A stretch of 5,022 nt of DNA. It comes from a virus. Its lineage: Duplodnaviria; Heunggongvirae; Uroviricota; Caudoviricetes. A model generated the notes under the pieces. That model did no database searches and was not told where the DNA came from. It saw only the letters and a program-made list of their open reading frames with translations. Location of the stretch: IMG/VR virus record IMGVR_UViG_2579778650_000006. One strand, written 5' to 3'. The position numbers and the translations under genes are program-made. Shown piece after piece: positions 2,143-2,277 of this stretch; position 1 is the stretch's first letter, and each line of letters begins with the position of its first letter.

Positions 2143-2277
2143 TCATCCACGGCAGTGGCACCACACTTCAAACATTCGCTTCACAACTTCACGACAGTAG
2201 AAGCCGTCAACATCTCGCGTCAGGTCATAGCGATTGCCGTAACGCTGGTGGACCCATCGTTCAAATGCTTTATTCAT
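2143..2277 (-). CDS. Candidate small ORF, 44 aa (MNKAFERWVHQRYGNRYDLTRDVDGFYCREVVKRMFEVWCHCRG), not in the supplied track.
   Basis: ATG at 2275-2277 lies 3 nt after the TAA of the upstream gene. SD AGGAAG sits 6 nt upstream of the ATG. Stop TGA at 2143-2145 is 18 nt before the xis start. It fills an otherwise unexplained 157-bp gap in a compact operon. Translated by hand. Confidence 0.35.
   Translation of the reverse strand: MNKAFERWVHQRYGNRYDLTRDVDGFYCREVVKRMFEVWCHCRG

Follow-up and report, generated by a model that had tools for sequence, protein, structure and literature searches.

Comparative analysis of a small PHROG 3871 gene ahead of xis in the leftward early operon of a lambdoid prophage

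Introduction

Many small early-region proteins of lambdoid phages act by binding partner proteins. In phage lambda, the small proteins of the exo-xis region (Orf55, Ea8.5, Orf60a, Orf61, Orf63, Orf73 and Ea22) are encoded in the stretch of the pL operon that separates the recombination genes from xis, the same neighbourhood as that of the gene described here. Specifically, lambda orf55 lies directly upstream of xis, with ea8.5, in the slot equivalent to the one that concerns us (PMC8614690). According to the part of that article that cites Kwan et al. 2013, Ea8.5 binds zinc through a conserved site (PMC8614690). Genes of the exo-xis region of lambda and the Stx phages affect both the choice between lysis and lysogeny and the induction of the prophage (PMC3824215, PMC8614690, PMC7093339), and induction controls the output of Shiga toxin (PMC3824215). 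The recombination directionality factors, among them lambda Xis, the DUF1233 proteins and the AlpA/HTH_17 proteins, offer another point of reference, as they too are small, basic and encoded beside int or xis.

The gene considered here, which we call orf44, lies in a stretch of 5,022 nucleotides from a virus of the Caudoviricetes (IMG/VR record IMGVR_UViG_2579778650_000006); "the window" refers to that stretch at its full length. It came to attention through a prediction made from the sequence alone, which described an unlisted ORF of 44 codons with its own ribosome binding site between a gene for an 80-aa protein and xis, pointed to a Cys/His-rich C-terminus, and raised the possibility of a directionality or regulatory role. 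Here we compare this locus with its relatives and with the systems above.

Results

The window covers the left end of a lambdoid prophage. Every gene in it is on the minus strand, more Ea22-like early genes lie beyond 3366, and the leftward early operon runs in the order Ea22-like genes, a DUF551-like gene, a DUF4222 gene, orf44, xis and int. The orf44 reading frame occupies 2143..2277 (minus strand) and comprises 44 codons plus TGA, with a product that reads MNKAFERWVHQRYGNRYDLTRDVDGFYCREVVKRMFEVWCHCRG; its assignment draws on a PHROG 3871 match, codon-level conservation, an AF2 model and a RefSeq protein (WP_001030157.1) that occupies this position in an identical prophage. The ATG (2275..2277, minus) is preceded at a 6-nt spacer by the Shine-Dalgarno sequence AGGAAG (2284..2289, minus), which is within the last codons of the upstream gene. 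That gene (2281..2523, minus) encodes a DUF4222 protein (PF13973, E 8e-14) that is 80 aa long in annotated records as well, and its TAA (2281..2283, minus) is in frame with orf44 and 3 nt ahead of the orf44 ATG, making translational coupling likely. The orf44 TGA (2143..2145, minus) stands 18 nt ahead of the xis ATG (2122-2124), and the 18-nt spacer (2125..2142, minus) contains the xis ribosome binding site GAGG at 2130-2133. The downstream neighbour is xis itself (1870..2124, minus), which encodes a DUF1233-type excisionase (PF06806, E 2e-29; phrog_539), and the final gene of the operon encodes a tyrosine integrase (550..1836, minus; Arm-DNA-bind_2 and Phage_integrase domains) and adjoins attL and mlrA. 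The coordinates of orf44, its Shine-Dalgarno sequence 6 nt upstream and the gaps of 3 and 18 nt all agree with the original prediction, to which we add the strand.

Scans for promoters, terminators and Rfam families returned no promoter-like site and no Rfam family in or adjacent to orf44, and terminator-like sites were found only inside the DUF4222 and int coding regions, at a frequency no higher than in shuffled sequence. The lack of any such element of note around orf44 fits its membership of an operon. The host element is a BP-4795/Stx-phage-like lambdoid prophage inserted in mlrA (yehV), and orf44 is the penultimate accessory gene of its tightly packed leftward early operon.

The insertion site, a 5′-truncated mlrA (~1-514, minus), deserves a comment of its own. 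The prophage sits in the 5′ end of the gene (window 1-549), and the mlrA frame resumes only from ~514 downward (IPVTLRAWQRRYG...). In RefSeq strain AR_0013 a 228-aa MlrA is called at the identical junction; compared with the native MlrA, which we take to be 243 aa long, the first ~15 codons have presumably been replaced by sequence from the prophage end. There are reports that the regulation of curli and biofilm in O157:H7 is impaired by prophage insertion in mlrA.

Two further features of the operon lie upstream of the DUF4222 gene. The first is an ORF of 27 codons at 2528-2611 (minus strand; product MSWPDAIVTLGVVFAAAFVVFSICRWG), which fills the 84-nt "gap" between the DUF4222 gene and the gene for a 252-aa protein. 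It has a strong Shine-Dalgarno sequence (GGAGGTG), starts with an ATG that shares nucleotides with the TGA ending the 252-aa gene (ATGA), and stops with a TAA 4 nt ahead of the DUF4222 ATG. Among the loci compared, its length is exactly kept in divergent alleles, for example MNWPEAFTAVGVAIAVAFILYSLFRWG and MSWPDAFFGAACVFAMAAMVLAIIFWG, and variation by codon position is higher at the third (0.27) than at the other two (0.18 and 0.13). The ORF carries no annotation in PhiR5_1, BP-4795, JLK-2012 or RefSeq AR_0013; the exact 27-aa sequence is absent from a collection of 15 billion proteins and has no PHROG match. The product is hydrophobic enough for one transmembrane helix, and from its sequence it looks like an overlooked single-helix membrane peptide, arguably more novel than orf44. 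The second feature is the 252-aa protein itself (2608..3366, minus), which is labelled Ea22 and in a Pfam scan contains the beginning of a DUF551 domain: its extreme C-terminus matches just the first 16 of the 68 positions of the DUF551 profile and then ends. It appears to be a DUF551 protein truncated by a mosaic junction that precedes the 27-aa ORF. Kinship between this protein and the orf44 product was considered and rejected (hhalign probability 1.2%).

With 49 ORFs of 30 aa or more in the window, the length of orf44 alone is not beyond chance, and the case for coding rests on its relatives. These amount to 186 loci including the window, taken from annotated phages, GTDB genomes, IMG/VR and one Logan contig, with Escherichia, Salmonella, Klebsiella, Citrobacter, Pantoea, Serratia and Xenorhabdus among the hosts. 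The frame is complete from residue 1 in 185 of the 186, the single exception being a deletion variant; frameshifts or stops in the frame of relatives, which the original prediction had named as the finding that would count against it, were thus looked for and did not turn up. A start codon is kept at the conserved position (ATG in 178 loci, TTG in 4, GTG in 3), and among the 42 distinct 20-mers that directly precede orf44 homologs, which are often unrelated to one another, 36 contain an SD-like motif. In a set of 22 diverse copies (Escherichia, Shigella, Salmonella, Klebsiella, Citrobacter, Pantoea, Serratia, Xenorhabdus and others), pairs diverge on average by 0.19, 0.16 and 0.47 at the first, second and third codon positions. 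Pairwise dN/dS against the window copy (Nei-Gojobori) is 0.04-0.24 wherever dS could be estimated, and in the most distant pairs synonymous sites are saturated. The pN/pS ratio is 0.24 in the orf44 frame and exceeds 1.2 in four of the five alternative frames, the fifth being the antisense frame with coinciding third positions. Stops are absent from the orf44 frame, and each of the five other frames is interrupted in some or all relatives.

It is possible to argue that orf44 is nonetheless a chance ORF, or a non-coding spacer conserved at the DNA level alone, given that ORFs of this size are common in the window and that the coding status is a matter of sequence comparison rather than of expression. 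Such a reading is barely credible, and for practical purposes it is refuted by the open frame in 185 loci together with conservation at the codon level: the proteins remain 59-98% identical where synonymous sites are saturated, and the start position and SD motifs persist across unrelated upstream contexts. Hence, as judged from these comparisons, orf44 is a genuine, separately initiated and strongly conserved small protein-coding gene, and the small gene with its own ribosome binding site that was originally predicted holds up: the SD-like motif is kept, the frame is intact in relatives and purifying selection acts at the codon level. The supplement of a Ribo-seq study of small genes in O157 Sakai has no entry for orf44; translation of orf44 is in any case not expected from a repressed prophage.

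The description of orf44 as unlisted applies to the ORF track that accompanied the original prediction, from which it is absent, but not to the public record, where it is annotated in BP-4795, Fels-1 and RefSeq entries and is a member of PHROG 3871. Residues 1-44 match profile positions 1-44 of 48 in PHROG 3871 at E 1.9e-32. Homologs are annotated as hypothetical proteins in BP-4795 (ORF3, YP_001449240.1), Fels-1 (STM0895.1n, YP_001700536.1), JLK-2012 (gp03) and PhiR5_1, and the identical protein, again called hypothetical, is found in RefSeq for E. coli AR_0013 (WP_001030157.1), in an identical prophage beside mlrA. The exact protein occurs on at least 1000 contigs under the label "hypothetical protein" or "bacteriophage protein", and a megablast of the region found matches in 564 of 5426 complete E. 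coli genomes, 417 of which cover at least 80% of the query. orf44 is therefore already known as a member of an annotated family of hypothetical proteins, PHROG 3871. The family is narrow, with 95 clusters at 90% identity and 29 clusters at 50% identity in a profile search of 1.84 billion representatives, and is confined to phages and prophages of the Enterobacterales. A 993-aa repeat protein (P0113) returned by the profile search was set aside as a compositional false positive.

None of the annotated homologs carries a function label. Searches of Pfam, NCBIfam and PADLOC gave no match for orf44, the PADLOC defence profiles likewise matched none of its four upstream neighbours, and Pfam matches in distant relatives were limited to their other domains. 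A literature search for functional studies of orf44, PHROG 3871 or the named homologs found none. One entry in the protein clusters needs explanation: the 90%-identity cluster that holds the exact orf44 protein has an 80-aa DUF4222 protein as its representative, so that two neighbouring gene products are mixed in it. The two sequences are unrelated, and we therefore treat the mixed cluster as an artefact of clustering, probably caused by a bridging ORF that was fused or mis-called.

When modelled by AF2 with the family alignment (pLDDT 90.1), the protein is predicted to form a helix (residues 2-13), a beta-hairpin (16-27) around RYDLTRDVDGFY and a second helix (30-43). Thus the orf44 product is a basic 44-aa protein with a confidently predicted helix/beta-hairpin/helix mini-fold. 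An alignment of 21 sequences, drawn from at least 8 genera, is invariant at F5, E6, R16, Y17, D18, L19, R21, D22, G25, Y27, R29, V32, R34, M35 and W39; these residues form the core motif of PHROG 3871, which the window protein has in full. The protein has a net positive charge, R16, R21, R29 and R34 being invariant and K33 nearly so. A sequence-profile search of the PDB returned noise (E at least 0.8), and Foldseek with the predicted model found nothing in the PDB at E below 5; its matches in BFVD were confined to uncharacterised phage proteins, where the module is found either by itself or within a longer chain of 57-499 aa. In one E. coli relative of 58 aa (P0002), the last 14 residues (REVVKRMFDVWCHC) are tandemly duplicated internally, and the C-terminal helix is thereby lengthened.

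The C-terminus that the original prediction called Cys/His-rich is so in the window allele, but the residues concerned are not invariant in the family: other members carry S, F, A or G in place of C28, R in place of C40, Y, S, E or F for H41, and L, R or A for C42. A zinc-binding mini-protein that uses C28, C40, H41 and C42 would draw on the presence of all four in the window allele and most of its close relatives. Against this, each of the four positions is occupied by a non-ligand residue somewhere in the family, AF2 places C40-C42 within a regular helix of a fold that is confident with no metal, and Pfam gives no match to a zinc ribbon or zinc finger. As these residues are not conserved, a conserved zinc site is unlikely, and we regard zinc binding by orf44 as a very improbable account of its function.

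Additional information comes from proteins in which an orf44-like segment is joined to something else. P0125 consists of an orf44-like N-terminal module and DUF551, and P0121 of the same module and a Lar-like zinc ribbon; the N-terminal pattern that they share is FE..V....Y.F.RD.DG.YC.EV...MW..W. Such distant module proteins match PHROG 3871 at E 1e-8 to 2e-6, the values for P0120 and P0125 being 1e-8 and 2e-6. In a contig of Logan accession DRR526068 (L025, 2462-2836), a divergent orf44-like module (MQISFEVWMSQHHGDRYNLDIDCEGYYAVEVTKRLYEMWVHFNS) is continuous in frame with a DUF1233 Xis, and the junction has neither a stop nor an evident internal Shine-Dalgarno sequence. A single-sequence AF2 model of this kind of module-Xis fusion (P0117) has a pLDDT of 36 and is therefore uninformative as to any interface between the module and Xis.

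It is informative to examine where the gene lies across its relatives, for which we used the 56 distinct protein alleles in the 186 loci. About two thirds (~37 of 56) sit 5-19 nt upstream of an excisionase gene, and the excisionases are of at least four types (DUF1233 at 50-100% identity, two AlpA/HTH-type forms and others); in 3 of the 56 the excisionase is farther downstream. Another 12 map to the nin region, where rusA/ninH precedes orf44 and the antiterminator gene Q follows it, at a distance of ~0 nt in the cases in which Q was recognised. Two more belong to siphoviruses, Citrobacter vB_CfrS_K1M and Salmonella CF-SP1, where the gene follows DUF551 genes and the flanks that were examined contain no integrase. 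The two main slots, before the excisionase gene and before Q, are both at the promoter-distal end of a delayed-early operon. The nin-region copies (loci L007, L017, L021, L108-L116 and others) make up a sub-family with the C-termini ...CHCKGWEV, ...WGL or ...GEI that abuts the start of Q, and the PhiR5_2 record gives the copy as an 80-aa protein, whose annotated start lies farther upstream and overlaps ninH.

Comparison of nucleotide sequences reveals that orf44 behaves as a discrete unit. Homology to the Fels-1-type and Citrobacter-type loci starts exactly at the orf44 ATG (2277/2278), the start codon being one of two mosaic joints; the other is codon 44 (Gly; 2146..2148, minus), as homology to many relatives stops at 2147. 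The joints, at 2146-2148 and 2275-2278, are seen against loci L004, L005, L009 and L012-L014. Their exact placement at the start codon and at codon 44 indicates that orf44 is a self-contained, independently assorting mosaic unit. Most relatives are 48 aa long; the 44-aa allele goes with the window type of xis and the 48-aa allele, which has an LSVV or LNVV tail, with an xis that is ~50% identical. The joint at codon 44 accounts for the lack of this tail in the window allele and implies that int-xis modules have been swapped behind orf44, and hence that adjacency to xis may reflect the architecture of the operon and not function. In E. coli CFSAN004176 (NZ_CP014583.1, L024 1501-1660), a deletion has removed orf44 codons 1-27 and the 3′ part of the DUF4222 gene, with xis and int the same as in the window and retained. 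The orf44 remnant in this strain is labelled by PGAP as an incomplete DUF4222 pseudogene.

These contexts bear directly on whether orf44 is an accessory factor of excision that cooperates with Xis or Int to tune directionality, for instance through a stabilising effect on Xis or on the excisive intasome. The proximity of about two thirds of the alleles to excisionases of at least four types speaks for such a role, as does the L025 module in frame with a DUF1233 Xis, and this frequent adjacency together with the one fusion leaves some room for a link to excision. On the other hand, 12 alleles are just ahead of Q, the two siphovirus copies have no integrase in the flanks examined, the module is fused to DUF551 and a Lar-like ribbon as well as to Xis, and the codon-44 joints show exchange of int-xis behind the gene. 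Furthermore, orf44 has no similarity to any excisionase family, the lambda exo-xis region contains no homolog, and the gene has been lost from a prophage in which xis and int persist. We consider a role in excision unlikely on balance. The nin-region copies, the copies with no integrase and the fusions to unrelated domains do not support a dedicated directionality role, and the directionality or regulatory role first put forward, whose single ground was the adjacency to xis, finds no support either: orf44 also occurs before Q, in integrase-less phages and fused to unrelated domains.

Discussion

The reading that we favour, at a probability of roughly one half, is that the orf44 protein is a non-essential accessory factor of the early operon that binds a host or phage partner protein. 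According to this reading, induction or infection would lead to transcription of orf44 as part of the early-left operon and to its translation from its own Shine-Dalgarno sequence, probably in coupling to the DUF4222 gene; the protein would then bind its partner through a surface made up of the invariant hairpin and helix 2 (R16, Y17, D18, L19, R21, D22, G25, Y27, R29, V32, R34, M35 and W39). It would be neither a zinc finger nor a dedicated recombination directionality factor. The partner-binding mode is proposed by analogy with other small early proteins of lambdoid phages, and our confidence in the mechanism is moderate. Retention of xis and int in the CFSAN004176 prophage after deletion of most of orf44 fits the proposal that the gene is non-essential.

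It is also worth considering that a 44-aa protein with five basic residues that are invariant or nearly so is equally compatible with nucleic-acid binding. The protein could be a small regulator whose basic mini-domain binds DNA or mRNA and modulates the switch gene downstream, be it xis or Q. Consistent with this, the protein has a net positive charge with four invariant arginines (R16, R21, R29, R34) and a nearly invariant K33, and both main slots directly precede a developmental regulator, with gaps of 0-19 nt. However, the predicted fold is unlike known DNA- or RNA-binding domains in PDB sequence and Foldseek searches, conserved Arg/Asp pairs in so tiny a domain may be structural salt bridges, and in virulent phages the gene is followed by neither xis nor Q. 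We hold this possibility to be no stronger than that of a role in excision. More speculatively, the PHROG 3871 mini-domain could be a dedicated small partner of Xis and Q that binds them or couples their synthesis. We think this less probable than either of those alternatives; if true, it would reveal a previously unrecognised cofactor that times both excision and late-gene activation, and the Xis fusion would be a Rosetta-stone clue. A partner-binding accessory factor remains the reading that we prefer.

The biological interest of orf44 is modest, as it is one of many conserved, uncharacterised small early-region accessory genes in lambdoid and Stx prophages. Nonetheless, the genes found in this region of lambda and the Stx phages have effects on lysogenisation and on induction, and hence on the output of Stx, so a defined function for the orf44 family would add a small piece to that picture. 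Concrete, testable hypotheses follow from its position right ahead of xis or Q and from the shuffling of the module as an N-terminal domain. For annotation, we suggest that orf44 be kept as a real gene for a hypothetical protein of PHROG 3871, and that it receive neither a zinc-binding nor a directionality-factor label.

How, then, does orf44 compare with the systems described at the outset? The directionality factors (lambda Xis, DUF1233, AlpA/HTH_17) share with it size, charge and position beside int or xis; searches of Pfam, PHROG, NCBIfam and the PDB (Foldseek) gave no similarity of sequence or fold, and in place of the winged helix or other Xis-family features orf44 has a predicted helix-hairpin-helix that matches nothing in the PDB. 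Moreover, a bona fide DUF1233 Xis is already encoded directly downstream, and orf44 is not obligately linked to an integrase, as its 12 nin-region alleles and the siphovirus copies indicate. Likewise, the resemblance to the lambda exo-xis genes is positional only, since a profile search in six frames of lambda 27,700-32,100 found no relative of orf44. The candidate homology to Orf55 was rejected (hhalign probability 0.3%). In contrast to Ea8.5, orf44 does not have conserved cysteines, and the four Cys/His ligands of zinc-finger and zinc-ribbon proteins (Ea8.5-like, Orf73/TraR-like and Lar-like) are not maintained in its family.

The closest relatives are the other members of PHROG 3871 (and of the longer PHROG 17609), which are of the same length class (44-48 aa) and match orf44 over its full length. 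Those of BP-4795, JLK-2012, PhiR5_1 and Fels-1 occupy the same slot before xis as orf44 does in the window, and compared with the commonest form, of 48 aa, the window allele lacks the 4-residue tail and differs in nothing else of substance. At a greater distance are the early proteins with DUF551 (PF04448) or Lar-like domains, whose N-terminal segment shares the orf44 pattern at a remote level of ~30% identity. orf44 directly follows a DUF551 gene in the virulent siphoviruses; whereas the DUF551 and Lar-like proteins carry the module as one part of a fusion, orf44 in the window is a standalone gene.
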